Positions 7,247 to 29,049 of a DNA stretch of 64,000 nucleotides are shown here, piece by piece. The stretch's first letter is position 1; the number at the start of each line of letters is the position of its first letter. Under the pieces are notes generated by a model. That model saw only the letters and a list, made by a program, of their open reading frames with translations, made no database searches and was not told the DNA's origin. Position numbers and translations under genes: made by a program. The DNA is from Deltaproteobacteria bacterium (GTDB lineage: Bacteria > Desulfobacterota > Dissulfuribacteria > Dissulfuribacterales > QOAL01): the NCBI GenBank assembly GCA_024275145.1, contig JAJRZR010000111.1, positions 7,466 to 71,465 on the forward strand, given 5' to 3'.

Positions 7247-7711
7247 ATGTTACTTCTTCACTTTGAGATAGGAGAAGGCAAATATGCCCTACCAGCCGAG
7301 CGTGTGTTAAAGGTCCTGCCCTATATCAAGCTCAAAAAGATACCAAAGACCCCTGAGTTCGTGGCGGGTTTCATGAACTACCGCGGCAGGTTGATCCCTG
7401 TTATCGATCTTTGCTCCCTCATACTGGACAGGCCCTGTAACCCGTTTTTGAGCACCAGGATCATCCTGATTGACTATCCCTTCGGTAAAGAGGGGACTGC
7501 GCCCCTGGGCCTGATTGCAGAATGCGTTACCGAGGCTGTTCATGGAAACGAGTCAGACTTTGTATTCTCTGGCCTCAAGCACCAGGACAGCCCCTTTCTG
7601 GGAGGGGTTGCGCTGGATGAAGAAGGAATGGTGCAGTTCATAGAGACCAATCTCTTGTTACCAGGACAGGTTCGTGACATGCTTTTTAACTACGAAAATA
7701 TGAGGGCATGA
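7247..7711 (+). CDS. cheW: CheW-like coupling protein (WspB-like)
   Basis: A single CheW domain of 154 aa (YALPAERVLKVLPY...PEFVAGFMNYRGRLIPVIDL). It starts 3 nt after the MCP stop. Confidence 0.85.
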   Translation: MLLLHFEIGEGKYALPAERVLKVLPYIKLKKIPKTPEFVAGFMNYRGRLIPVIDLCSLILDRPCNPFLSTRIILIDYPFGKEGTAPLGLIAECVTEAVHGNESDFVFSGLKHQDSPFLGGVALDEEGMVQFIETNLLLPGQVRDMLFNYENMRA

Positions 7712-16409: not shown

Positions 16410-18704
16410 CTATTCCGTGACCTCCTCGATTTCCCCCTCGGTTTCGAGATAGGCATCCCTCAGGCGTATCTTCATTTCATCTGACGCATTCCACATGCCA
16501 CGTTCTATGGCCTCGAGCAGTTTATCCAGTATGTTTTCCATGGCATATGGATTCACCCCCTTCATCCACCTTTGCATCTCGGGATCAAGGACGAATTTTT
16601 CAGCAAGCCTTTCATACATCCAGTCCTCTATGACCTGGGCAGTGGCGTCCCAGCCGAGGACCACGTCCATCATCTTGGAGATATCACCTGCCCCCTTGAA
16701 GCCGTGGCGTTTCATTCCTGCAAGCCACTTTGGATTGGCAAGCCTTGAGCGAAGTACATGCCTGGCCTCTTCCAGGGTGCTGCGCATCTTTATGCGTCTG
16801 GGATCGGCACTATCACCTACCATGGCAAGGGGTAGCTCACCACGGACTGAACCTGCTGCGGCGATAAGTCCTCCATAATAGTTATAGAAATCCGTGCAGG
16901 ACATCATGTCGTACTCCCTGGAATCCTCGTTTTTTACGGTTAGCTCCATGCGAGAAAGGAGATTCCGGAACGTAGAAATCTTTTGCGTGCCATAGCTTCC
17001 AGCGCCGTATGCATGGGCGCTGTAACGTATATAGTTGTTGGCCAGGTCTTCCCTGGTTTTCCAGTTCTTGGATTCTATAAGTTCAGCGACCCCTGCGCCG
17101 TAGGTGCCGGGAGGACATCCAAAGACCCTGAAGGTTGCCTCCCTGAGGGCCTCTTCCCTGCCCATTCCCGCCTTGGTGAGGTGCTCGACATCGGCAAGGG
17201 CATTTTTCCTGATCAGATTGCTCTCCAGTGGCTCTTCAAGCGCTGCGGCCATCTTTGCGGCATTGTCCAGGAGTTCAACAAGGTTCGGGAACGAATCCCT
17301 GAAAAACCCGGATATCCTGGCCACGACATCTATCCTGGGCCTTTTGAGCCTGGACAGCGGTATTACCTCCAGGCCGGTTACGTCACCGCTACCTCTGGCC
17401 CAAACCGGTCTCATCCCCATGAGGTAGAGTATCTCTGCGATATCATCCCCCCTGGTTCGCATGGTAGGGCCACCCCAGATGATGATGCCTATGCTTTCCG
17501 GATAGCGTCCATGGGTTTCGGCCAGATGCCTTTCAAGCAGGGCGTTAGCAAGCCTCTTGCCGGTCTCCCATGCGGCCCTGGTTGGGATTTTACCAGGATC
17601 CACCGAGTAAAAATTGCGTCCCGTTGGAAGTATATCCGCCTGGCCCCTGGTTGGAGCGCCTGACGGGCCTGGCGTTACGAAGCTGCCGGAAAGTCCGGCA
17701 AGGATTGCGGAGATCTCGTCTCTTGTCTGCTTGATCCTTGGAACGAGGTCTGAGCGTATGTAATCGAGAACCTTTTCCACCCGGGTGTCCCTTACACCAA
17801 GGTGATTTTCTACGATGTCGTCTCCATTGTATTGGGAGGCAGTATTGGCGATCAGGTCCTTGACAAGGGCAATTGCGGTGGCATGGGCCTCTTCAATAAT
17901 CTCTGCCCCGCTCCTGCCTTTACTGCCTGGCACTACCTTGCCCAGGGCCTCTATGAGGGTGTCATATTCATAGCCCATTGCCCTTAGGACAGCCTCTCTT
18001 AAGGATGGTGTCTGGCCGTTTGGAAGTCGTGTAAGCTGTACCGCATATTCGGTGAGCTCATCCCCCTCAGGTGGAACCCCGAGTATGTGGAGGCCATCAT
18101 TTATCATGGTGTCCGAAAGCTCGGCAAGATACCCATGGAGCCTTTCAAGAAAACCATCAAAATCTGAAAATGCCTCTTCCTCTGTGACATGAAGATCCTT
18201 GTCCAGGTCCGCTTTGGTTGCTGCCTGCCATATCATGGGTCGCAGGATAGGAATCTTGCCAGGGTCCTCCCTCAGGGCATCGGCATATTCCTTCAGCAGG
18301 TTTTCCAGGCTGGCAAGGTCTTCGTAAAGACCCGCTTTGGTAAATACCGGGGTGAGATGATCTATAATACAGCAGAACGAGCGCCGCTTGGCCTGGGTGC
18401 CCTCACTGGGATCGTTTATGATATATGGATAGATATTTGGAAGGTCCATGATCGCAAGATCCGGGTAACAATATCCTGAGAGTCCCAGGGCCTTTCCTGG
18501 AAGCCATTCCAGGGAGCCATGCTTGCCAACGTGTATGAGCGCATCGGCCCCGAAGACCTCCTTGATCCACCTGTAATGGGCCAGGTAGTTGTGGGGAGGG
18601 GAAAGATAGAAGTCGTGGTAGAGTTTCTCTATGTTTTCAAGGTATCCACGCGGCGGCTGGATGGTAATGAAGATGTTTCCATTGATTATGCCTGGAAACA
18701 GCAT
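16410..18704 (-). CDS. cobN: CobN-type (cobaltochelatase/Mg-chelatase H family) large subunit, C-terminal ~785 aa fragment
   Basis: CobN-like sequence throughout. My hand translation upstream of the listed ATG, in the same frame, gives ...YQKKTTEDWGKVPGRLFVHNGKMLFPGIINGNIFITIQPPRG. So the frame is open and CobN-like back to the A7 run at 18758..18764. Confidence 0.85.
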   Translation of the reverse strand: MLFPGIINGNIFITIQPPRGYLENIEKLYHDFYLSPPHNYLAHYRWIKEVFGADALIHVGKHGSLEWLPGKALGLSGYCYPDLAIMDLPNIYPYIINDPSEGTQAKRRSFCCIIDHLTPVFTKAGLYEDLASLENLLKEYADALREDPGKIPILRPMIWQAATKADLDKDLHVTEEEAFSDFDGFLERLHGYLAELSDTMINDGLHILGVPPEGDELTEYAVQLTRLPNGQTPSLREAVLRAMGYEYDTLIEALGKVVPGSKGRSGAEIIEEAHATAIALVKDLIANTASQYNGDDIVENHLGVRDTRVEKVLDYIRSDLVPRIKQTRDEISAILAGLSGSFVTPGPSGAPTRGQADILPTGRNFYSVDPGKIPTRAAWETGKRLANALLERHLAETHGRYPESIGIIIWGGPTMRTRGDDIAEILYLMGMRPVWARGSGDVTGLEVIPLSRLKRPRIDVVARISGFFRDSFPNLVELLDNAAKMAAALEEPLESNLIRKNALADVEHLTKAGMGREEALREATFRVFGCPPGTYGAGVAELIESKNWKTREDLANNYIRYSAHAYGAGSYGTQKISTFRNLLSRMELTVKNEDSREYDMMSCTDFYNYYGGLIAAAGSVRGELPLAMVGDSADPRRIKMRSTLEEARHVLRSRLANPKWLAGMKRHGFKGAGDISKMMDVVLGWDATAQVIEDWMYERLAEKFVLDPEMQRWMKGVNPYAMENILDKLLEAIERGMWNASDEMKIRLRDAYLETEGEIEEVTE

Positions 18705-20185
18705 TTTTCCATTGTGTACGAACAGCCTTCCTGGTACTTTGCCCCAGTCTTCGGTTGTTTTTTTCTGATACGTCCAGGAAGTCCCTTGTGCCAGGCATGG
18801 TATCTGTCTTCATCGGCTACCGCCTCGGCCCTTTCTGCCATATGTTCGGATGTGAGCCATCTGCCATCCCATGTCAGGCCTGACAGAAGCTCCCTAGCCA
18901 GCTCATCCCCGTTCTCGTACAGCCGTTCCACCTGGTAACCCTCTTCCTTCATTCTATCGAGGAGGTGCTTGACGCTCGTGAAGCTGTCAAGACCTGCTGC
19001 GCAACCGATCCGGTCGTTTCTGGGAGGATAGTTGTGAAAGACTATAGCCACCCTTTTTTCGTGGTTGCCGAGGTGCCTGAGCCTTGCCCAATTGAGGGCT
19101 ATCGAAACCATCTTCTCCACCCTGTCGGGGATGGGCACATTCCTGGCGAGAAGTGCACCGGTCAAAGGGTCTGTTTCGTCCTGCTCTCTGGAGGCCACCG
19201 GTACGGTGATCAGTGCCCCATCGAACTCGGGCTGTGCTGCAGAATAGGAGACATCCATTACGGATACACCCTGTATGTTTTCCTCCCAATACTTCCTGGT
19301 GTTCATCATGGTCATCGCCTGGATAAAGGGCACGTCGAGCCCCTGTAATATCTTCTTATACTCCGGTGCGGCAATGGTAAGGGAGAACATCATCGGGTTT
19401 ATGAGCACATCTATCCTTGGGCGTTCGCCATCCATGAAAAAGTGGCTGGCTATATAGTCTGCCCCATGGTTCCCAAGCACATTGTCCTTCCATCTATGGT
19501 GAAAGACCGGAATTACGTTTGCGCCTCTACGTTCGATCTCACGTATTATGGCATCTATGTATGAAAGATTGCCGTTTACCCAGTAGGACTGGTAAAACCA
19601 TAGTCCTGCTGTCACCCTTCCAGGTTTGACCCTCTGTGTCAGATACTCATAGAGACATGGAATGCCCGGAATGTCAGGGTGATAAATACCTTCATTTGGC
19701 AGCGGAGTCGGTGCTTCGGCCCTGTTTTTTTCCTCAAGGAGCAGGTTACGGAGGAACAGGAATAGGTTGTAAAAATTCAGGTGTCCGCCGTGGGTCAGGT
19801 AGGCGTTGATTGTATCCCACTGGGTAGTGCCAAAGGCATCTGAGAAGTCCCTTGCTGCACCAAGGCCGTCTTCGTCCCCGCCCGAGGCATATATGTGAAT
19901 GTACGGGGTCTTTTCACCCTTTCTACTTCTTTCATTCAGTTCATCCATTAGGATGTCGAAGGAAGGAAAGGATGCCTTGCCACCGTGTAATATTATCAAG
20001 ACTGCGTGGGCAGTTAGCGCATCCCTGACGAATGCCTTGACCTGCCTGTCAGAAGAAAGCTGCGTCTTTGTCCTTGCTCGTACCTCGACACAGCCTCCTT
20101 GTTCTCTAAACCTGCGCACCCCTGCGCTCAATGATGGGATTTCAGTTGCCGTGGCGCTGAAGTAAGAGATCCTCAGTGGCTTCAT
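18686..20185 (-). CDS. cobN: CobN-type chelatase, N-terminal ~475 aa fragment (leaves the CobN frame at an A7 run and terminates at 18686)
   Basis: ORF 18686..20293. I chose the start MKPLRISYFSATA at 20185, which forms an ATGA overlap with the upstream radical-SAM stop. N- plus C-fragments total about 1,260 aa, the usual CobN length. Confidence 0.8.
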   Translation of the reverse strand: MKPLRISYFSATATEIPSLSAGVRRFREQGGCVEVRARTKTQLSSDRQVKAFVRDALTAHAVLIILHGGKASFPSFDILMDELNERSRKGEKTPYIHIYASGGDEDGLGAARDFSDAFGTTQWDTINAYLTHGGHLNFYNLFLFLRNLLLEEKNRAEAPTPLPNEGIYHPDIPGIPCLYEYLTQRVKPGRVTAGLWFYQSYWVNGNLSYIDAIIREIERRGANVIPVFHHRWKDNVLGNHGADYIASHFFMDGERPRIDVLINPMMFSLTIAAPEYKKILQGLDVPFIQAMTMMNTRKYWEENIQGVSVMDVSYSAAQPEFDGALITVPVASREQDETDPLTGALLARNVPIPDRVEKMVSIALNWARLRHLGNHEKRVAIVFHNYPPRNDRIGCAAGLDSFTSVKHLLDRMKEEGYQVERLYENGDELARELLSGLTWDGRWLTSEHMAERAEAVADEDRYHAWHKGLPGRIRKKQPKTGAKYQEGCSYTMEKCCFQA

Positions 20186-21306
20186 CCCTGCCTCCTCTGT
20201 TCCGCTTCCCACAGGGCCTGATACATGACACACGTGAGCCCCTTGTGACCTCTGCCGTTGTAGTAGAGCCTGCTGGGACAGTCGCCAGGACAACGCCCTT
20301 CAAGGGGGCAGTACTCACACCAGATCCCCTTGGCCTCAAGACCGGTAAGTGATCTGCCGCTCAGGGTTTCTGGTTGTAGTTCATGCAGGTTTCCCAGATA
20401 AAAGTCCATGTCACCAGCGGTCTGAGAACACGGGAAAAGGGAGCCGTCAGGAAGGACAGCAAGGCTTTCACCAATGCAGGCATGGCAGTAAACGGCTGCC
20501 TTGGCCCGCGACGCCGGTCTTCTTATATTTTCAAGCTCCCGTAGGGTCAATGCCACGGAGCGTCTTTCGTTCACATATAACAGCGCATCATAGAGCCTTG
20601 ATATGCCGGCCTTGAGTGCCTGTTCATCCGGAGGGGCCACAGGTACCAGCGAGCCTTTTGCCCTTCCTTTGTTCACCAGTATGTCCAAGGCAAGTCCCCT
20701 GCAGGCAGGAAATGCCGAAAGCAGTAGCACGAGCTTGTCCAAAAATAGTACGTTATCCCTGGTAACCACAGCAGTAACCCTGAAGTCCATTCCAATTTCA
20801 TTCAATATTTTCATACAATATAGTGTATTATTAAAGTTTCCCCTTAAGAAATTGTGGACATCCTTTGGGCCATCGAGGCTTATTCCAATCTGTATGCCCA
20901 GTTCCCTGAATTTTTTGGCAGTATCAAGATCCATCATGGTCCCGTTGGTCTGCAAACCAATGGTGACGGGAAACCCTGCCTGCCTTATGACAAGGGCGAT
21001 CCAATGAACCAGCTCTATCTCCAGAAGGGGTTCTCCACCGCTGATCTGGACATGGAACGGTTTGCCGCAGGAGGAGGCGAGCAAGATGGCGCGCCAGGCG
21101 ATATCACGGCTCATGGCTGGTAGTCCCCGGGGATTACCTCGGTAGCAGTAGGAGCATTTCAGGTTGCAGGCATTGGTTACAAGCAATATGAGATACCTTG
21201 GTGGAGTCCGGTAAGGCGTCCCGGTATCCCTTAAGATCCGGGCATCATGTACAGGATTGGCCGTCGCCCTTTTGGCACGTTCAGACATTACATGGCGCAG
21301 ATTCAT
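20182..21306 (-). CDS. Radical SAM protein with a C-terminal SPASM domain (AhbD/NirJ/AslB-like architecture)
   Basis: CNLKCSYC (CxxxCxxC) radical-SAM cluster motif. The SPASM-type Cys pattern is YCHACIG...LPDGSLFPC...CEYCPLEGRCPGDC. Confidence 0.85.
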   Translation of the reverse strand: MNLRHVMSERAKRATANPVHDARILRDTGTPYRTPPRYLILLVTNACNLKCSYCYRGNPRGLPAMSRDIAWRAILLASSCGKPFHVQISGGEPLLEIELVHWIALVIRQAGFPVTIGLQTNGTMMDLDTAKKFRELGIQIGISLDGPKDVHNFLRGNFNNTLYCMKILNEIGMDFRVTAVVTRDNVLFLDKLVLLLSAFPACRGLALDILVNKGRAKGSLVPVAPPDEQALKAGISRLYDALLYVNERRSVALTLRELENIRRPASRAKAAVYCHACIGESLAVLPDGSLFPCSQTAGDMDFYLGNLHELQPETLSGRSLTGLEAKGIWCEYCPLEGRCPGDCPSRLYYNGRGHKGLTCVMYQALWEAEQRRQG

Positions 21307-21749
21307 CGGAGCACATCCTCCATTAAATCAAGAAGTTGCGGTATGCCTTGGCATACAGTTATCCTGGCCGCGTCCCTCCCAAAGCCCTTCCTCAATTCAT
21401 CGGCCGGCCTAAGAGAGAACACGGCGCACCCCATATTGAGTGCAGCCCTTACCAGTTCCAGGTTTGGCCGGTTCAGGGCGCCCGTTTTAAAACCCGAATC
21501 CACAAACACTGATGCCTGCCTTGCCAGTTCCAGTGCCCTGTTGACCTTTTCTTTGCCTATGACCTCCATGGGAGGGCATCCTGCAATACAGGCCCCAAGG
21601 GCTGAAGCCACATGATAGTCAAGGTCGTTTTCGTGGAGCACGCCGGTGGAGATGGAATAGCCACGCCTGACCAAGGACCTGAACAGCCCTGACCCTGAGG
21701 CCATCCCTGCTGCCACGAACACCTTTTTCCCGGTCCTATTTCCCGTCAT
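21303..21749 (-). CDS. Hypothetical 148-aa soluble protein (no family recognised)
   Basis: An ORF with plausible coding character, translationally coupled (ATGA) to the downstream radical-SAM gene. A Gly-rich N-terminus (KKVFVAAGMASGSG) hints at a nucleotide-binding-like fold. Confidence 0.55.
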   Translation of the reverse strand: MTGNRTGKKVFVAAGMASGSGLFRSLVRRGYSISTGVLHENDLDYHVASALGACIAGCPPMEVIGKEKVNRALELARQASVFVDSGFKTGALNRPNLELVRAALNMGCAVFSLRPADELRKGFGRDAARITVCQGIPQLLDLMEDVLR

Positions 21750-21791: not shown

Positions 21792-22523
21792 CTAGAAAAG
21801 ATGGGTAACGGTCTCTTTCTTGAGAAGTTCCTCAGGAGGCCCCCAACCCATGATGCCCCCATCCTTCACGAGCATCACCTGGTCGGATAACCTGGCAGCC
21901 AGGCCCACGTCGTGAAGTGATGCCACGACGGTGATGTCCCGCTCACGGCACAACCCCTGAAGGATTGCCATTACCTCCATGGAGTGCTTGAGATCAAGAT
22001 GCAGGGTGGGCTCGTCGAGGATGATGATGTCCGGTTCCTGGGCAAGCGCCCTGGCAATGAGCACCTTTTGTCTTTCACCATCGCTCAATGTCTCAAGGCG
22101 TCTGGTGGCAAGATCCCCTGCATGGACCATGGAAAGTGCCTCCAAGATTACCTTGCGGTCCGGTTCCGTAAGCCTTCCCATGAAATCCGTGTATGGATAC
22201 CGTCCAAGGGCCACAAACTCGAAGGCCGAAAAAAGTCCTGGCTGCACCTTGTCGGTAAGTACTATCGAGAGCAATCTGGCAAGCTCCTGGGAAGGAAACC
22301 CTTCAAGGGCCCTTTCCCTGAGCAGTATCACCCCTTTTATCGGAGGAAGCAGCCTGGCAAGGCTCCTCAACAAAGTGGTTTTCCCTGCCCCGTTGGGACC
22401 AAGAAGTGATATGAAACTGCCTCTGGGCAAGGCAAGATCTATATTGCTCAAGACACCCCTGATCCCGTATCCCACTTCGAGCCCTTTCGTTTCGATCGTA
22501 TAACTGCCTCTCTCCTGTCTCAC
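21792..22523 (-). CDS. Iron-complex/cobalamin-type ABC importer ATP-binding protein (BtuD/FepC-like)
   Basis: Walker A GPNGAGKTT, signature LSDGERQKV and Walker B IIILDEPT. It overlaps the permease gene by 4 nt. Confidence 0.9.
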   Translation of the reverse strand: MRQERGSYTIETKGLEVGYGIRGVLSNIDLALPRGSFISLLGPNGAGKTTLLRSLARLLPPIKGVILLRERALEGFPSQELARLLSIVLTDKVQPGLFSAFEFVALGRYPYTDFMGRLTEPDRKVILEALSMVHAGDLATRRLETLSDGERQKVLIARALAQEPDIIILDEPTLHLDLKHSMEVMAILQGLCRERDITVVASLHDVGLAARLSDQVMLVKDGGIMGWGPPEELLKKETVTHLF

Positions 22524-23548
22524 TCCATAACCCTCCGTCTGGTAAGAAGGCTTATGACTATAGGGGCGCCGAACAGGGCAGTTATCGCACTTATGGGAAG
22601 TTCTACAGGGGAGAATATGAGCCTTGCCGCCAGGTCACACAAGCTTGTCACGATCCCGCCGAGCAGGATGGTGGCTGGCACCAGGATACGGTTGTCTGAG
22701 GTTGCAAAACCCAGGCGTGCCATATGAGGTACTGCAAGCCCTATGAAGGCCACCGGTCCCGCCACTGCCGTCACCATGCCGGATAGGGAGCAGGCACAAA
22801 GGAGGATCAAGAAGCGCTGAATGCGTATGTTTACCCCCATGCTTGAGGCGTATGACTCTCCAAGAAGGAGGGCATTAAGGGATTTGCCAAGGGCTAGTGA
22901 GACAACGAGGAGCGCGCCTCCAAACAGGAGGAGCATCTTTATCTCGGACCATTTAAATCCGGAAAAGCTGCCGAGTTGCCACAGGACAAACCCTTTTATT
23001 TTCTCCTGTTCGGCAAACGCCACTAGGACGCTCGTGACTGCATGGCAAAGGTATCCCATCATGAGGCCGACGATCAGAAGCGTTATAGGGTTTTTCGTCT
23101 TCGAGGCAATGACCAGGATGATGGCAAGGACCCCGACCGCCCCTGCCAGGGCCGACAGGGTGGTAAGGAACGGGGTGAGGTGGGCGATGTTCAGGCTTAT
23201 GGAAGTGAGCATTACCAAAGAGACCATCAATATAGCCCCAGAGGATATACCCAGTATGAAGGGGCCGACTATCGGGTTCCTGAAAAAGACCTGGAGGAGA
23301 AGGCCTGAGACCGCAAGGCACGCACCTCCGAAGACAGCGGCAATGGTTCTAGGGATGCGGATGTTCCACACGATGAATCCATTGGTGCTTAATGTATCGT
23401 GTCCACTTATCATATGCATTAGGCTCGAGACCGGGATATCAATGGATCCTGACATGACGTTGACTGCCATACATGCAAGGAGGGCAACGAGGAGCAGTAT
23501 GAAGAGAAGAATGTGGCGCCTATTCTTTGGCAATACGTACCTATCCAT
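22520..23548 (-). CDS. FecCD-family ABC importer permease (BtuC-like)
   Basis: A 342-aa polytopic protein with typical FecCD features (RIPRTIAAVFGGACLAVSGLLLQ, GAPIVISLL). Confidence 0.9.
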   Translation of the reverse strand: MDRYVLPKNRRHILLFILLLVALLACMAVNVMSGSIDIPVSSLMHMISGHDTLSTNGFIVWNIRIPRTIAAVFGGACLAVSGLLLQVFFRNPIVGPFILGISSGAILMVSLVMLTSISLNIAHLTPFLTTLSALAGAVGVLAIILVIASKTKNPITLLIVGLMMGYLCHAVTSVLVAFAEQEKIKGFVLWQLGSFSGFKWSEIKMLLLFGGALLVVSLALGKSLNALLLGESYASSMGVNIRIQRFLILLCACSLSGMVTAVAGPVAFIGLAVPHMARLGFATSDNRILVPATILLGGIVTSLCDLAARLIFSPVELPISAITALFGAPIVISLLTRRRVME

Positions 23549-24671
23549 TATCCGTTGGGTCCTTGTCTGGAAGCTCTTTGAAAAATTTCAGGTGATATCC
23601 TGGGAAACGTTTAGGATTCAGTATCGCTGCCACTTCTTTTATGATTTCGTCCAACCTGTCTGCACTTTGTGCATAGGCTGGAAGCGGTGAATAGACCCTG
23701 CCCCTGGTCAGTGGGCCGATATCCTTCAGGAGGGGATTCGTCCTGGCCAAGGCCTCCTTTGATGTGGCCCCGGCCCCGGGGGTTTTGTACGTAAAGAGTA
23801 TGTCCGCCTTTTTCCCGCTGGAAAGAAACCTTTCCAGTGTTATCTCCATTCAGGAGGCCCCTGATATGTCCCTGAAGAGGTACTTTCCTCCGGCGAGCTG
23901 TATTATCTGTGCCGCCCATGAGTCTCCAGGTTCCACCATCACCCTTTTTTCGTATATGTCCCCCCATATCACCTTGGGAGGCCTTCCTGGAGAAAGATGC
24001 ATAGCACGAATCCGTGCTATAGCAGCCCGTAGCCTTGCCACATAACGCCCTGCGGCCTCTTCCCTTTGAAAGAAGAGGGCTAGGAACTGGACAAAACGCA
24101 TCCTGGTATCAAGATCCATGGCCTTGGCAGTGGATGTTATGACACCGGCCATGCCAAGTTCCTCGATCTTCGGTATGGCGGATTGATCCCAGGTGAATAC
24201 TACATCTGGTCTGATGGCCCTTAGCCTTTCGTAGTCCACGGCATTGGGTTCACCTACATAGGTGATCCGGCCATCCTTCATGCCTTGACTCACCTCCTCT
24301 ATGGTCCAGTCCTCCCTTTCCCTGGTAACACCGACTAGTGTGCTTTCAAGAACCCCTATGGCCTTGAGCAGGGACACCACATAACCTGAGTAGGCAACTA
24401 CCCGGCGGACCGGTATCTCTATGATCCGGTCTCCCTCATACCCTTTCGGTGGCCTCTGTCCCCTGGGAACCAAGAGCATGCGCCTCCCGGCACCATCACG
24501 GATTTCCTTGCACCCGTTTGGCAGACATGTGGCGGAAAATTCCCCGAGATCAAGGAAGTTGCGGGTAGCCTTGCGTTCCTTCATGCACCCTGGAAGGAAA
24601 ATGATGAAAAACAGTAGGAAGATGGTTGCTGTGTACCTATAGCCGGTTTTCAATGCTTGTTTACTGGGCAT
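23541..24671 (-). CDS. BtuF/FecB-type periplasmic substrate-binding lipoprotein, interrupted by an in-frame TGA at 23850..23852
   Basis: ORFs 23850..24764 and 23541..23849 are contiguous in one frame and separated only by TGA. The lipobox FLPGC follows MPSKQALKTGYRY (start chosen at 24671). Both halves look like one class-8 PBP (..AGGKYLFRDISGAS*MEITLERFLSSGKKADILF..). Confidence 0.7.
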
Positions 24672-24702
24672 AAGTGTTTTTTCCTGTAAGCCTGACGGTA
24701 TC

Positions 24703-25545
24703 TTATTTTCCTTCACCATGGTTCCTCGGGCCACGTGAAGGTTTGGACCCTTTGATAAATACACGAAATAGATAGAGTGCCAGCCCGATCGTGAAGAGCA
24801 GGGTGCCTGAAAAATAAAGGATCGTTCCCCTGTCCCTTTTCACTAGTAGCCGTACATATGGGGTGTCGTTCATGGAGGATCTGCTCTTCGGGCCAAAGTC
24901 CTCTAGATAAAAGCCAAGACCATTGAAGAAAAAGGGGGAGTTTATGCCGATTGCCCTGGCCACGGTTGTTTCGCCGGACTTTAGGCCGATGGTGAAATGG
25001 ACCGAGATGGTACGGCCATTGAGGTATTTCAGGCGGTTTCCCCGGTAGTAGTCTATGTCAGATGAAACGAGCTCCAGGTATATGTCAGTGCCGGGGATCC
25101 TGGTGCTTTCACCTTTGACTGCAATTACACTTGAGGCGTACCTGCCAGGGAATGTATAGCTTGCTAGAAGGCCAAAAAGTATGACTAACAATGCATAATG
25201 CATTATGTGTACGAATAGTTTCGATATGAGACCGGCACGATTTCGGTATATTCTGTAAAGAAAGAGGACCTTGGATGTTGTACATGTAAGGGTATTTACC
25301 GCTAGTATAAACAGGAGTACGAACAACAAGAATAACCACAAGGTCTTCCAGGGGTGGATGGCGGCATACGTGAAGCCCCAGCGTATGAGTCCAAGGTGGT
25401 TGAGTGGATTAAAGAGATCCTCGTTTTCCCTGAGGCAGAGATAGCCGGCTGCCAGATCCACAGTCACCAGGGACATCGTCAATACGGCAAGGGGGACGCC
25501 TTTCAGGACAGGCCATATCCTTTCAAGGGTTACAGCCATGGCCAC
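24703..25545 (-). CDS. ResB/Ccs1-like membrane protein (short, 280 aa)
   Basis: N-terminal transmembrane helices with the pattern LFLLFVLLFILAVNTLTCT typical of ResB, then a soluble segment and a C-terminal transmembrane helix. It overlaps the upstream CcsA-like gene. Confidence 0.6.
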   Translation of the reverse strand: MAMAVTLERIWPVLKGVPLAVLTMSLVTVDLAAGYLCLRENEDLFNPLNHLGLIRWGFTYAAIHPWKTLWLFLLFVLLFILAVNTLTCTTSKVLFLYRIYRNRAGLISKLFVHIMHYALLVILFGLLASYTFPGRYASSVIAVKGESTRIPGTDIYLELVSSDIDYYRGNRLKYLNGRTISVHFTIGLKSGETTVARAIGINSPFFFNGLGFYLEDFGPKSRSSMNDTPYVRLLVKRDRGTILYFSGTLLFTIGLALYLFRVFIKGSKPSRGPRNHGEGK

Positions 25546-26297
25546 CTCATCAGTCCGTTGATATCAGGCGGGGAAAAGGGGCCAAGGTTTGGATACCATT
25601 GGAAGAGCACGACAAGCCCCGCCCCCAAGACTGCGGCAAGTGCCCGTCTTCTCATACCCCATCCCCTCAGAAGATCGAGGTGAAGGTAGCAGCCATAATA
25701 AAACCAGGTGGACATGGACAGGGTTATCAGTGGATCGTCCCAGACCACGGGGCTTCCCCATCCCAGGTATGACCAGATTTCACCAGAGAAGATAGACAAT
25801 GTGTCCAGTGCAAAGCCCCATATGGCCCAATGGTTGAAGATGGGTCTAGTAGTGCCTCTGTCCTTAAGATAGGAAAGGGCCAGAAGGCCTGAAATTATGA
25901 AGCAGGCATCCGCCATGACGCCTGTGAGGAAGAAGATATGGGAAAATATGGTCCTTGATTTCCAAAATGGAAGGTAGAAGTCCTTGGGGAAGAATAGCGC
26001 TCCCAGTGACAGCAGGGCAAGGAGGCCTAGTAGCCAGCGGGATTCCTTTCCCTGGTAAAGGACCGATCCGCTAAGCAGGATTCCCACCAAGGACGGCAGG
26101 AAGAACGGCATCTGGTACATTGGTAAAAAGGGCCAGGAATGATAGTATCTGGCCGCATCCGATAGCAGGTTTGCCAGGATTGCCAATACGAAAAGCGGTA
26201 TGGAGGCCGCTGGAGCAGGTGACGGCATCATGGAGGTGCACCATGCCATGGTATACAGGATGGCAGCCATGGCAAACGGGGCATGCAGCGAAGGCAT
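25530..26297 (-). CDS. CcsA/ResC-like haem-handling protein (cytochrome c assembly family, WWD motif)
   Basis: Trp-rich motif GWGSPVVWDDPLITLSMSTWFYYGCYLHL. The protein is polytopic. I chose the start at ATG 26297, which has an AAGGA RBS, 7 nt after the receptor stop. The longer ORF would overlap the receptor by 86 nt. Confidence 0.75.
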   Translation of the reverse strand: MPSLHAPFAMAAILYTMAWCTSMMPSPAPAASIPLFVLAILANLLSDAARYYHSWPFLPMYQMPFFLPSLVGILLSGSVLYQGKESRWLLGLLALLSLGALFFPKDFYLPFWKSRTIFSHIFFLTGVMADACFIISGLLALSYLKDRGTTRPIFNHWAIWGFALDTLSIFSGEIWSYLGWGSPVVWDDPLITLSMSTWFYYGCYLHLDLLRGWGMRRRALAAVLGAGLVVLFQWYPNLGPFSPPDINGLMRWPWL

Positions 26298-26304
26298 CTT
26301 GTCC

Positions 26305-28224
26305 TTAGAACCTGTATTCCAACCCCGCCTTGGCCATGCGGGGCATATCATAGTAGACATACCTGTTCGATGCCTCGGGACGCCTTTCACCTGTGGTTAC
26401 AAGGGTATCATCAAAGAGATTGTCCACGCCAAAGGTCAGGAAAAGATGTGGATTTACCCTGTATTTCCCTGTAAGGTACAGGCAGCTAAGGTCATTCAAA
26501 TCCCGTTCCCTTTTGAAGAGGTGATAGGTTCGGATGTCCAGATAAAACGTGCCGTCATCATAGGTGACCGCCGTGGAAAGCTGGATTTTGGGACCTGCCT
26601 GATAGTCCCTGCCTGATATATCCTCTGCTTTCGGATCGGCCCAGTAACCGCACAGGGACAGGCTCATGTTGGAAACCACTGAATCAACTTGACTGAATGG
26701 TTGCAATCTGGTTTGCCATTCAATGCCTGTAGATCTATATGAGCCGGCATTATAATAGTGAAGCGGGTAACCCTGGGAACGGTCGATCTCTATCTTGTCG
26801 TTATAGTTCATATAGAAACCAGCTAGCCTTATAGAGATCAGTGGGCTGTCCCATTTAAGCCCCACGTCATAGGTCCAGCCCTTTTCAGGTCCTAGGTTGG
26901 GATTTCCTTCCAGGAAGGTGCTTAAGTAGTAGAGGTTGTTGAACGTGGGGGCCTTGAAGGCCTTGCCTGCATTGGCAAAGAACGAAAGCTCCCTATTTGT
27001 CTCGTAGATAATGGCAAGGGTTGGAAGTAACCTTTCATAGTCTTCGGCCCCATATTTACCATCTATGAACTGCTCCCTTATCCCCAGGCTAGCAGTTATG
27101 TGGCCTGAAAAGGTATACTTAGCGTAGCCGAATACGGAGTAGTCATAACGCCTCTTGTATCCATATTGGTTGTTGTAGTCCGCATCTCTGCGGATATAAT
27201 CGGCACCGGTCACAATGGAGAGGTCCTTGAACGAAAAGTCGTAATTGATCTCTCCACCCCAGTTCCAGTTTTTGTTCATGTTTACTGACCTTGCCTGCCT
27301 CCATGCCCGTTTCCTTCTACTATATTTCCACTTCCTATTGGCATAGTTCATGTAGTCATTGAAGAAAAAGCCCTTGGCCAGGAGCCTGTTCCCTTTGTAT
27401 TTGATGTCTGCAAAATGTTTGAATTGCCGTTGATGGGAAATAGCCAGCGGATCTGGTCCACTTTCCTTGTCATTAATCTTGATATAGCCGGTATTGTTAT
27501 GGGAAAAGATGTAGTCAAGGGACAGATTGTCAGTAAGACTCACTCCGGCATTGAAATTGTATACATTGAGATCAGTGGTATTGTAATGATAGTCCTTGCT
27601 GAAATTATCAGAAAGATGGGCCTGTCCCCCTATGTGTTGATAGCCTAAATTAACAATGAAGTTTTTTCCGTAACAACTGATTGAATTGTTCAGATATTTA
27701 AAGTCACCTGCTTCAATTTTTACGTCTGCACCTTTTTTCTTTATCCTTGTCCTGGTGATTATATTGATGATTCCGGTCATGGCGTCCGCCCCATAGAGGG
27801 TGGATGCGGCTCCGCGGACGATCTCGACTTGCTTGATTGCATTAAGCGGAATCATATTGAGATCATAGGATTTGCTGGAGGCGTTTTGTATCGGAAGGCC
27901 ATTTATCAAGACAAGTTCCCCGCCATAGACCCCTCTTAGTAAAAGTTCACTGTTCATGCCCCCATGGCTCGTGCCAAGTACCCCGAGTGATTTATAGGCA
28001 AGGCCACCGCTTCGTTTTAGGGCATCTATCAAGTTTGTGGCACCACTCGCCATGAGTTCCTTCCGGTTTATGACCGTGACGTACTTGGCAGTGTCTTTTT
28101 CCTGTACCTCAACCTTCTCGGCAGTGACGATGACCGGTCCTATCTCCACCAAGGACCCGGCGTATGCTGGCAATGCTGTCAAGGTGGACATCAAAAACGA
28201 AAAAAATAAGGCAAAAAATCGCAT
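26305..28224 (-). CDS. TonB-dependent outer-membrane receptor (BtuB-like by context)
   Basis: Signal peptide MRFFALFFSFLMSTLTALPAYA after an AGGAGG RBS. TonB-box/plug region (VIVTAEK...). The C-terminal beta-barrel ends ...AGLEYRF. It lies directly downstream of the cobalamin riboswitch. Confidence 0.9.
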   Translation of the reverse strand: MRFFALFFSFLMSTLTALPAYAGSLVEIGPVIVTAEKVEVQEKDTAKYVTVINRKELMASGATNLIDALKRSGGLAYKSLGVLGTSHGGMNSELLLRGVYGGELVLINGLPIQNASSKSYDLNMIPLNAIKQVEIVRGAASTLYGADAMTGIINIITRTRIKKKGADVKIEAGDFKYLNNSISCYGKNFIVNLGYQHIGGQAHLSDNFSKDYHYNTTDLNVYNFNAGVSLTDNLSLDYIFSHNNTGYIKINDKESGPDPLAISHQRQFKHFADIKYKGNRLLAKGFFFNDYMNYANRKWKYSRRKRAWRQARSVNMNKNWNWGGEINYDFSFKDLSIVTGADYIRRDADYNNQYGYKRRYDYSVFGYAKYTFSGHITASLGIREQFIDGKYGAEDYERLLPTLAIIYETNRELSFFANAGKAFKAPTFNNLYYLSTFLEGNPNLGPEKGWTYDVGLKWDSPLISIRLAGFYMNYNDKIEIDRSQGYPLHYYNAGSYRSTGIEWQTRLQPFSQVDSVVSNMSLSLCGYWADPKAEDISGRDYQAGPKIQLSTAVTYDDGTFYLDIRTYHLFKRERDLNDLSCLYLTGKYRVNPHLFLTFGVDNLFDDTLVTTGERRPEASNRYVYYDMPRMAKAGLEYRF

Positions 28225-28371
28225 ATCATCCTCCTGCCTCCTGATTCCCACGGTATCGCCAGGTTTTGCAGGTACGTGTCGGAAACTTGATGCTGGCAGG
28301 GTCTATTCCCAATTGGCGGGGGAAGAAAACAGGGCATGGATAGAGGGTAGGGGTTGCCTTGCAGGGCTTAT

Positions 28372-28408: not shown

Positions 28409-28465
28409 TTTGTTACAAAAAAGATACCCGGACAGGCCTTTAGCCGCGAAGCCTTCCTTCTTCCC

Positions 28466-28647
28466 CCTAGGCCGGTATCCCGGCTTGTGGATCGTTCTAC
28501 TGACTGCGCCTTCCCATGGCCAGGTTTGCTTGAACCGGCAAAGATGCCACAGTGGCTATGTGCAGCCTTCGTCCCCACTTACGGTTGCGGGCCAGCGCCG
28601 GATTTTCACCGGCTTCCCGATTAATTCTGCAACGGCAGAAACCTAGG
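28466..28647 (-). promoter_or_regulatory. Cobalamin (B12) riboswitch aptamer
   Basis: The minus strand carries AAUCGGGAAGCCGGUGAAAAUCCGGCGCUGGCCCGCAACCGUAA, then GCCACUG, then AUGGGAAGGCG, then a B12-box-like AGUCAGUAGAAC. A CCUAGG/CCUAGG pair closes P1 (28642-28647 with 28466-28471). Confidence 0.9.
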
Positions 28648-29049
28648 GTGGATATATATAAGATATGTGTTTTCAATGGCGTTTGTTTACGAACGCCTCG
28701 CTTATGCCGCCTATTGAGCACAAGGCATAAAATTCAAACAATGTTAACCTAAGGTTTGATTATGTCAAGGGCCAACTGGTGTGTCGAGCCAGCCATTACG
28801 GGCCTGGACGCTTTTACTGCATGCGCTCATAGGGCTTGGAGCTTTTACCTTCTATGGTCTGGCCATAAGGACATGGCGAAGATATGGTAATAGGGCCTGT
28901 TCAGGCCTGGACTTCCCGGGTAGATTGTCTGGTGACGATCAGGGGAGCCCTTTGAAAAGGATTTGCCGTTAAGATACATCCTGTCCTTGAGCCATGTTTT
29001 CGTGCCCGGAGATGCGGCGTCAAGGGTGGGGCTGCATAAAGGCTTGACA

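Follow-up and report, generated by a model that had tools for sequence, protein, structure and literature searches.

A binding-protein gene interrupted by an in-frame UGA

The window (the whole 64,000-nucleotide stretch analysed here, positions 7,466 to 71,465 of contig JAJRZR010000111.1 from a deltaproteobacterial assembly) carries on its minus strand a gene for the substrate-binding protein of an ATP-binding cassette (ABC) importer, and within this gene lies an in-frame TGA (23852-23850). As the initial annotation of this DNA had pointed out, and as both the sequence and the list of open reading frames (ORFs) bear out, the codon splits two contiguous ORFs, 23850..24764 and 23541..23849, which share one common frame with the TGA between them; the minus strand around it reads ...GGG GCC TCC TGA ATG GAG ATA ACA CTG GAA AGG TTT CTT TCC AGC GGG.... 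Read-through of both ORFs gives a product of 407 amino acids (aa), P0001, whose single Pfam match, Peripla_BP_2 (PF01497), extends over residues 122-358 and crosses the TGA with a score of 56.3 bits, compared with a gathering cut-off of 27.5. The TGA is very probably a selenocysteine (Sec) codon, judging from the sequence comparisons described below, and the gene is almost certainly an intact member of a selenoprotein family, with its Sec residue predicted to lie in the pocket where a vitamin-B12-regulated importer holds its ligand.

The gene probably starts at ATG 24671, where an 81%-identical relative also starts, and its stop is a TAG (23543-23541). The full-length recoded gene (23541..24671), with its Peripla_BP_2 match spanning the TGA, would encode a 376-aa lipoprotein precursor in which the putative Sec is residue 274 (residue 305 in P0001 numbering). 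In the public gene call, the protein starts at ATG 24719, has 289 aa and ends at the TGA.

Cysteine or UGA at the same column in orthologues

A homologue search of 5.8 billion proteins returned the window's own 289-aa call, the 81%-identical relative as a 273-aa protein ending at the same residue (...GAS), and hundreds of full-length proteins of 360-390 aa with 47-55% identity. When full-length homologues were aligned, 15 of 15 had Cys at the TGA column, in the motif G-[ST]-[SA]-C-[IV]-E-I-[ST]-x-E-R-F-L. Orthologous DNA was then drawn from the genomes of relatives, from a set with one genome per species (80 loci) and from metagenomes (80 loci), with the column placed in each locus by pairwise alignment. 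Across the 166 orthologous loci the codon is TGC in 82, TGT in 49 and TGA in 35; there is no other codon, and never TGG. The 35 TGA loci correspond to 27 distinct sequence contexts from several families of Desulfobacterota, and the residues around the codon follow the pattern G-x-[SAH]-U-[IML]-E-I, position -3 being Gly in all Sec contexts listed. Independent assemblies (ENA, NCBI, JGI and Logan) contain the same TGA, which is also kept in a ~91% relative found among the Logan contigs of a hydrothermal vent metagenome run; this run, which is not the source sample, is the only public run in which such a relative was found. TGA matches in two distant paralogues (L011 and L012) were discarded as merely their terminal stops.

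The initial annotation had held it against selenocysteine that the TGA aligns with the Trp of the WPQVS.E segment of E. coli BtuF. This alignment stands at the level of the superfamily, where it follows from the spacing of the motif, but it fails within the protein's own family, in which all 166 loci have Cys or TGA at the column and none has Trp. As an objection to Sec it is misleading because all close homologues have Cys at that column, the two together forming a Sec/Cys pair. None of the observations named at the time as telling against Sec (orthologues uniformly with TGG, no conserved hairpin, no selABC) turned out to be true.

The reading frame continues past the UGA, and in nearly all Sec loci the next 96 codons are open; three single stops there probably mark the natural ends of genes with shorter C-termini. 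Compared with the window, amino-acid identity past the UGA is 0.55-0.88 in the Sec loci, except for L038 (0.30), and in nearly all comparisons this downstream identity equals or exceeds that of the 80 codons upstream. The ratio of nonsynonymous to synonymous substitution rates (dN/dS) past the UGA is 0.07-0.12 wherever dS is unsaturated, which marks purifying selection on this part of the frame. In public gene calls every Sec form is broken up into a fragment of 273-289 aa and an ORF of ~100-118 aa, and the protein database holds the Sec forms solely as these split products.

A hairpin downstream of the UGA

The perfect 8-bp hairpin with a G/U loop that had been described 12 nucleotides (nt) past the TGA, at 23837-23818 on the minus strand, is exactly as the sequence has it, and RNAfold agrees, predicting an 8-bp stem with a minimum free energy (MFE) of -11.7 kcal/mol. 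Its 5' arm is CUGGAAAG (23837-23830), its loop GUUU (23829-23826) and its 3' arm CUUUCCAG (23825-23818), and the element as a whole encodes L-E-R-F-L-S-S. The apical loop lies 20 nt from the UGA and is opened by G-U. The published model of the bacterial selenocysteine insertion sequence (bSECIS) specifies a loop of 3-9 nt with a G within its first two positions, a stem of 4-16 bp, a UGA-to-loop distance of 16-37 nt and an MFE of at most -7.5 kcal/mol (PMC13188914), and the window hairpin (23818..23837) fits this model on all four published counts.

Perfect 8-bp hairpins occur 32 times in the 64-kb window when both strands are counted, and the chance that one starts 8-16 nt past a given codon is ~0.002. 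Taken by itself, the 81-nt segment has a weak folding z-score (-1.5), and the real support for the hairpin is therefore comparative. A stem of at least 7 bp starting 11-12 nt past the UGA is found in 12 of 12 distinct genome-derived Sec forms, compared with 3 of 66 Cys forms (Mann-Whitney p=3e-8), and the Sec forms include the variant loops GUUC, GGUU and AGUUUC, with MFE values from -8.1 to -12.9 kcal/mol. Sec and Cys forms alike encode L-E-R/K-F-L at this site, and they differ in the hairpin because they differ in codon choice. Of 27 Sec forms, 17 have Arg (AGG) and 10 have Lys (AAG) at one codon of the stem and none has CGN, whereas among 115 Cys forms the same codon is CGN in 101 and AGG in 3; similarly, at the codon that pairs with GGA, 25 of the 27 Sec forms have Ser TCC and 88 of the 115 Cys forms have Tyr TAC or TAT.

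Covariation was assessed in an alignment of 23 distinct 45-nt Sec windows. Here 95.7% of cells are in standard pairs, as opposed to 40-66% when the partners are slid by 1-3 columns, and 0 of 500 shuffles matched either the observed paired fraction or the covariation score. At pair 21-30, 17 sequences have A-U and 6 have G-C (GAA>GAG together with CTT>CTC, third-position changes that are both synonymous); at pair 23-28, 14 have G-C and 2 have A-U; and one-sided changes in the stem pairs result in G-U or U-G wobbles. The hairpin goes with the UGA as a feature of the RNA, its stem preserved through synonymous codon choice and compensatory changes. Conservation and covariance in orthologues had been proposed as a check when the hairpin was first described, and they uphold it: the element is kept in Sec forms, its pairs covary, and it conforms to the bSECIS model.

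Exchange of cysteine and selenocysteine

In a maximum-likelihood tree of 143 distinct proteins, built with the Sec/Cys column masked, the group that contains the window has 32 rows (25 Sec and 7 Cys) and the other clade has 111 (110 Cys and 1 Sec); at least 4-5 exchanges between Cys and Sec are needed on this tree. The single Sec form of the other clade, L076, is deep inside it as the sister of a Cys form, L050. Both come from metagenome-assembled genomes of Desulfobacterales, and the two are ~88% identical. Apart from TGC>TGA, the only differences over the 45 nt from the codon onwards are three synonymous changes, and two of these (GAA>GAG and CGG>AGG) lengthen the stem in L076 from 6 to 8 bp, with a GGUU loop and the register shifted by 1 nt. 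L076 looks like a recent independent conversion from Cys to Sec, and the pair would be a natural snapshot of how a Cys codon plus three synonymous changes create a Sec site complete with its SECIS element. Such repeated movement back and forth between Cys and Sec is typical of real selenoprotein families.

Cys forms also occur within the Sec-rich set, namely L185, L188 and L189, all from metagenome contigs, and in these a hairpin-like sequence is retained without the loop G. In L185 it reads UUGGAAAA-AUUU-UUUUCCAG, with the loop G lost, and in L188 and L189 it is degraded further. These hairpin-like sequences may be relics of a Sec ancestor, left by reversion from Sec to Cys.

Selenocysteine machinery and genetic code of the genome

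The initial annotation had proposed that the genome be checked for selA, selB, selC and selD, and all of them are present. SelA (530 bits), SelB (352 bits, with a cut-off of 242) and SelD (379 bits) score above their curated cut-offs, as does the tRNA-Sec (selC), which has the anticodon TCA and is located on contig C111. We also note that SelD itself (contig C57:9178-10104) has a UGA at its canonical site (...KASG-U-ASKIGPG...), followed after 11 nt by the start of a small hairpin, AGGUC-CGGGU-GACCU; the spacing between UGA and hairpin is the same as in the binding-protein gene. TGA is otherwise the commonest ordinary stop of this genome, ending 553 of its 1248 open frames of at least 300 codons. 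Its use as a normal stop elsewhere, noted earlier for the window, thus holds for the genome, and a global reassignment of UGA was rejected on this count.

The binding protein and its B12-regulated operon

The binding protein has a hydrophobic stretch with an invariant Cys at its end (LPGC) and is therefore probably a lipoprotein. Its AlphaFold2 model has a predicted local distance difference test (pLDDT) score of 83, and the top Foldseek matches of this model are binding proteins of class III whose ligands are haem, B12 and siderophores, including BtuF, BhuT and CeuE. Searching the PDB by sequence gave remote matches only (4ovk, 4ljs and 2r7a); in 4ovk a Trp aligns beside the Sec/Cys column. 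A conserved beta-rich N-terminal region precedes the Peripla_BP_2 domain (window 24360-24560; P0001 residues 70-117) and contains the motif EVRDGAGRxLVLVPRG.

The gene belongs to an operon of ten genes, all on the minus strand, with a cobalamin riboswitch at its head (28453..28661; RF00174, 120.3 bits). Gene 1 encodes a TonB-dependent outer-membrane receptor (26305..28251; Pfam Plug and TonB_dep_Rec_b-barrel) and is followed by a membrane pair consisting of CcsA-like (PF01578) and ResB-like (PF05140) proteins (24703..26390), which stands between the receptor and the binding protein. Next in order after the binding protein come its cognate importer, made up of a FecCD permease (22520..23548; Pfam FecCD, 256 bits) and an ABC ATPase (21792..22523; Pfam ABC_tran, 96 bits), and then a 148-aa MJ0874-like ORF, a radical S-adenosylmethionine (SAM) enzyme and a CobN-type chelatase in two ORFs (16410..21749 for this last segment), an order of genes shared with the 81%-identical relative, L002. 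CcsA- and ResB-like proteins are normally haem-handling parts of cytochrome c synthases. The CcsA-like protein here has a WWD-type motif (WGSPVVWDDP), and the pair adjoins the binding-protein gene in L002-L004 as well.

Among 16 orthologous loci tested over ~3 kb of flank, 10 have a cobalamin riboswitch upstream on the same strand, Sec and Cys forms included, and in L030 and L032 it is immediately ahead of the binding-protein gene; the family therefore belongs to the B12 regulon. The genome has a second Peripla_BP_2 gene controlled by a cobalamin riboswitch (contig C31:19554-20835), which is nearer to canonical BtuF, has Tyr at the Trp196 column and runs without an in-frame stop, and the organism therefore has two B12-regulated binding-protein systems. 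The presence of this canonical BtuF-like gene suggests that the putative Sec protein serves a distinct corrinoid-related substrate or role.

Two further interruptions were seen in the operon. An in-frame TAG (21792-21794, minus strand) stands between the ATPase and the MJ0874-like ORF, the 148-aa ORF restarting 14 codons on, and L002 has in its place a single 406-aa protein combining the ABC ATPase with the MJ0874 domain, with Asp at the TAG column. Pyrrolysine was considered for this codon and rejected, there being no PylS above cut-off in the genome, and the TAG would stem from a fission of the gene, from a nonsense lesion or from an assembly error. The CobN-type chelatase is encoded by the overlapping ORFs 18686..20293 and 16410..18704, which cover profile positions 2-349 and 373-1089, with the frame break at 18686-18704 (minus strand); in L002 the CobN call has 1258 aa and is unbroken in the part fetched. 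The TAG and the cobN break may be assembly errors or real lesions, in either case with no bearing on the ancestral TGA.

Alternative explanations for the UGA

The initial annotation had placed an atypical Sec site beside a nonsense pseudogene or sequencing error and leaky read-through; of these the Sec site is the one that gained support, and pseudogene and error are excluded by the occurrence of TGA in 27 contexts and by the selection acting downstream of it. A nonsense pseudogene would mean that a TGG- or TGC-to-TGA mutation killed the gene as part of a decaying operon, and the in-frame TAG (Asp in the relative) and the two-ORF cobN of the same operon would fit with this. We nevertheless regard it as highly improbable: the TGA is common to 35 loci from several desulfobacterotal families, some TGA-bearing relatives have uninterrupted ATPase and cobN genes as far as the fetched loci reach, the codons downstream have a dN/dS of ~0.1, and the hairpin co-occurs with TGA only. 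An error of sequencing or assembly at 23850-23852 might be entertained for a window taken from an assembly of 120 contigs, but with the same TGA in independent ENA, NCBI, JGI and Logan assemblies its likelihood is negligible. There is also very little to be said for a split gene, in which termination at the TGA and restart at the adjoining ATG would produce two polypeptides that assemble into the binding protein. Although gene callers give two ORFs and an ATG does adjoin the TGA in the window and in its same-genus relative, the next codon in most other Sec forms is ATT, ATC or CTG, which are not start codons, and re-initiation at ATG is therefore not the general mechanism; moreover, the second piece is without a signal peptide for export, and in the Cys forms the protein is one chain.

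Structures downstream are known in general to stimulate the read-through of stop codons, and it could be supposed that a near-cognate tRNA (Trp, Cys or Arg) reads the UGA independently of any SECIS element, with the hairpin merely slowing termination. That the column is Cys in relatives, and that Cys-tRNA is near-cognate to UGA, would accord with this. On the other hand, the genome has the full Sec machinery, the hairpin matches SelB-binding elements in its spacing and in the G-U signature of its loop, the step from TGA to TGC or TGT is a single one, so that selection for Cys would fix Cys, and the repeated independent exchange of Cys and Sec is the pattern of true selenoproteins; we give SECIS-independent read-through only a slight chance. 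Several considerations do weigh against the selenocysteine interpretation or parts of it. With its TAG and its cobN break, the operon might be decaying in the window's organism, although the TGA is ancestral. The hairpin sits in a conserved peptide motif, so its conservation is partly at the protein level, and, at 8 bp and with no bulged U, it is shorter than the element of E. coli fdhF. Finally, the placement of Sec in the cleft rests on a motif alignment with BtuF. Taken with these reservations, selenocysteine is still by a wide measure the reading that we favour for the UGA.

Predicted position of the Sec residue and proposed mechanism

The position of Sec274 was compared with the E. coli BtuF sequence, verified against PDB chains. 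The hhalign alignment to BtuF ends at D299/D192, six residues short of the column, with the preceding F-K/R-D anchored, and the equivalence of Sec and Trp196 therefore rests on ungapped motif spacing and predicted secondary structure: the spacing U-x5-E-x2-L here is the same as W196-x5-E-x2-L in BtuF. In BtuF, Trp196 belongs to a set of six cavity residues in contact with cobalamin and cobinamide, and the beta side of the corrin is turned towards the C-lobe (PMC5269720). We infer from this correspondence that Sec274 would be in the ligand cleft, on the C-lobe side, at the Trp196 position, where it may bind the metal centre of a corrinoid-type substrate.

In the mechanism that we propose, a ribosome reaching the UGA would not terminate, because the hairpin 12 nt downstream would recruit SelB-GTP-Sec-tRNA(Sec). 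Insertion of Sec in place of termination would then yield a single 376-aa exported lipoprotein, which would act as the substrate-binding subunit of the TonB/ABC importer controlled by the cobalamin riboswitch. A bolder and rather unlikely extension is that Sec274 (Cys in most orthologues) serves as an axial ligand to the corrinoid cobalt, which would make a biological Co-Se bond within a periplasmic binding protein. Corrinoids that are incomplete or have had a ligand exchanged, or else a related metallo-tetrapyrrole, might be captured in this way and passed to a salvage pathway that also depends on the CcsA/ResB-like pair, the radical SAM enzyme and the CobN-type chelatase and operates in parallel to the canonical BtuF system.

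To our knowledge, selenoproteins are nearly all redox enzymes, and very few families, SaoB and SaoX among them, have been proposed to carry selenium in the pocket where a transport binding protein holds its ligand. The family described here appears to put Sec at the corrinoid-contact position of an importer under B12-riboswitch control, and it offers a concrete case, open to testing, for Cys/Sec-metal ligation in cofactor uptake. Among sulfate-reducing Desulfobacterota of vents and sediments its Sec forms are common, at 35 of 166 loci. As public gene calls split the Sec forms, annotation pipelines and selenoprotein catalogues should include the family.

Comparison with known systems

The family is not among the 119 families of the 2026 selenoprotein catalogue, and NCBIfam release 20 has no model for it. 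We rate it as a candidate new selenoprotein family, one whose recoding mechanism is entirely known. A predicted selenoprotein listed as 'cobalamin-binding protein BtuF' (cd01144), of the same BtuF/TroA-like superfamily, has been catalogued with the motif CxxU (PMC9312934, PMC13188914); unlike that motif, the proteins described here have Gly, never Cys, at -3, and it is by this motif description that the two are set apart. Reviews credit the catalogued protein to Peng 2016, whose main text and supplements are without a description of a 'BtuF' selenoprotein.

The hairpin resembles the bSECIS elements of E. coli fdhF and fdnG, and the consensus, in being a coding-region hairpin directly 3' of the UGA, and it shares with the consensus a small apical loop opening with G and then U and a UGA-to-loop distance within 16-37 nt (PMC13188914). 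It differs from the fdhF and fdnG elements in its stem, which is shorter, perfect and without a bulged U, and its sequence is unrelated to theirs.

In overall architecture the binding protein can be compared with E. coli BtuF (PDB 1N2Z, 1N4A), with which it shares the class III fold (Foldseek E=2e-12), a partnership with a FecCD-type permease, an ABC ATPase and a TonB-dependent receptor, control by a cobalamin riboswitch, and, through the motif x-V/I-S/T-x-E-x-x-L, the alignment of its Sec column with Trp196. However, the similarity is remote (19.8 bits against the 234-bit cut-off of NF002894, the NCBIfam BtuF equivalog), and the protein differs from BtuF in its extra beta-rich N-terminal region, in its probable lipoprotein nature, and in replacing the aromatic residue by an invariant Cys/Sec.

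A functional parallel would be SaoB and SaoX of the SAO system, the first binding-protein selenoproteins to be described (Haft & Gwadz, bioRxiv 10.1101/2022.07.06.499078; J Bacteriol 2023). As in the present family, their Sec/Cys is in the predicted pocket of the binding protein of an ABC importer, where it is proposed to be a metal ligand rather than a redox catalyst, and their genes are likewise split at TGA in public annotation. They differ in belonging to a fold class akin to amino-acid-type binding proteins, in their CU and UxP motifs and in their neighbours (among them SaoL, SaoP and SaoE), and they are outside the B12 regulon; the binding protein here has the motif S-U-M/I/L and matches neither NF040727 nor NF040735 of NCBIfam. 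For an invariant Cys/Sec in a corrinoid pocket, a precedent exists in the B12 transporter BtuM of Thiobacillus denitrificans, an unrelated ECF S-component-like membrane protein without Sec, in which a Cys thiolate is the axial ligand of cobalt (PMC6072759).

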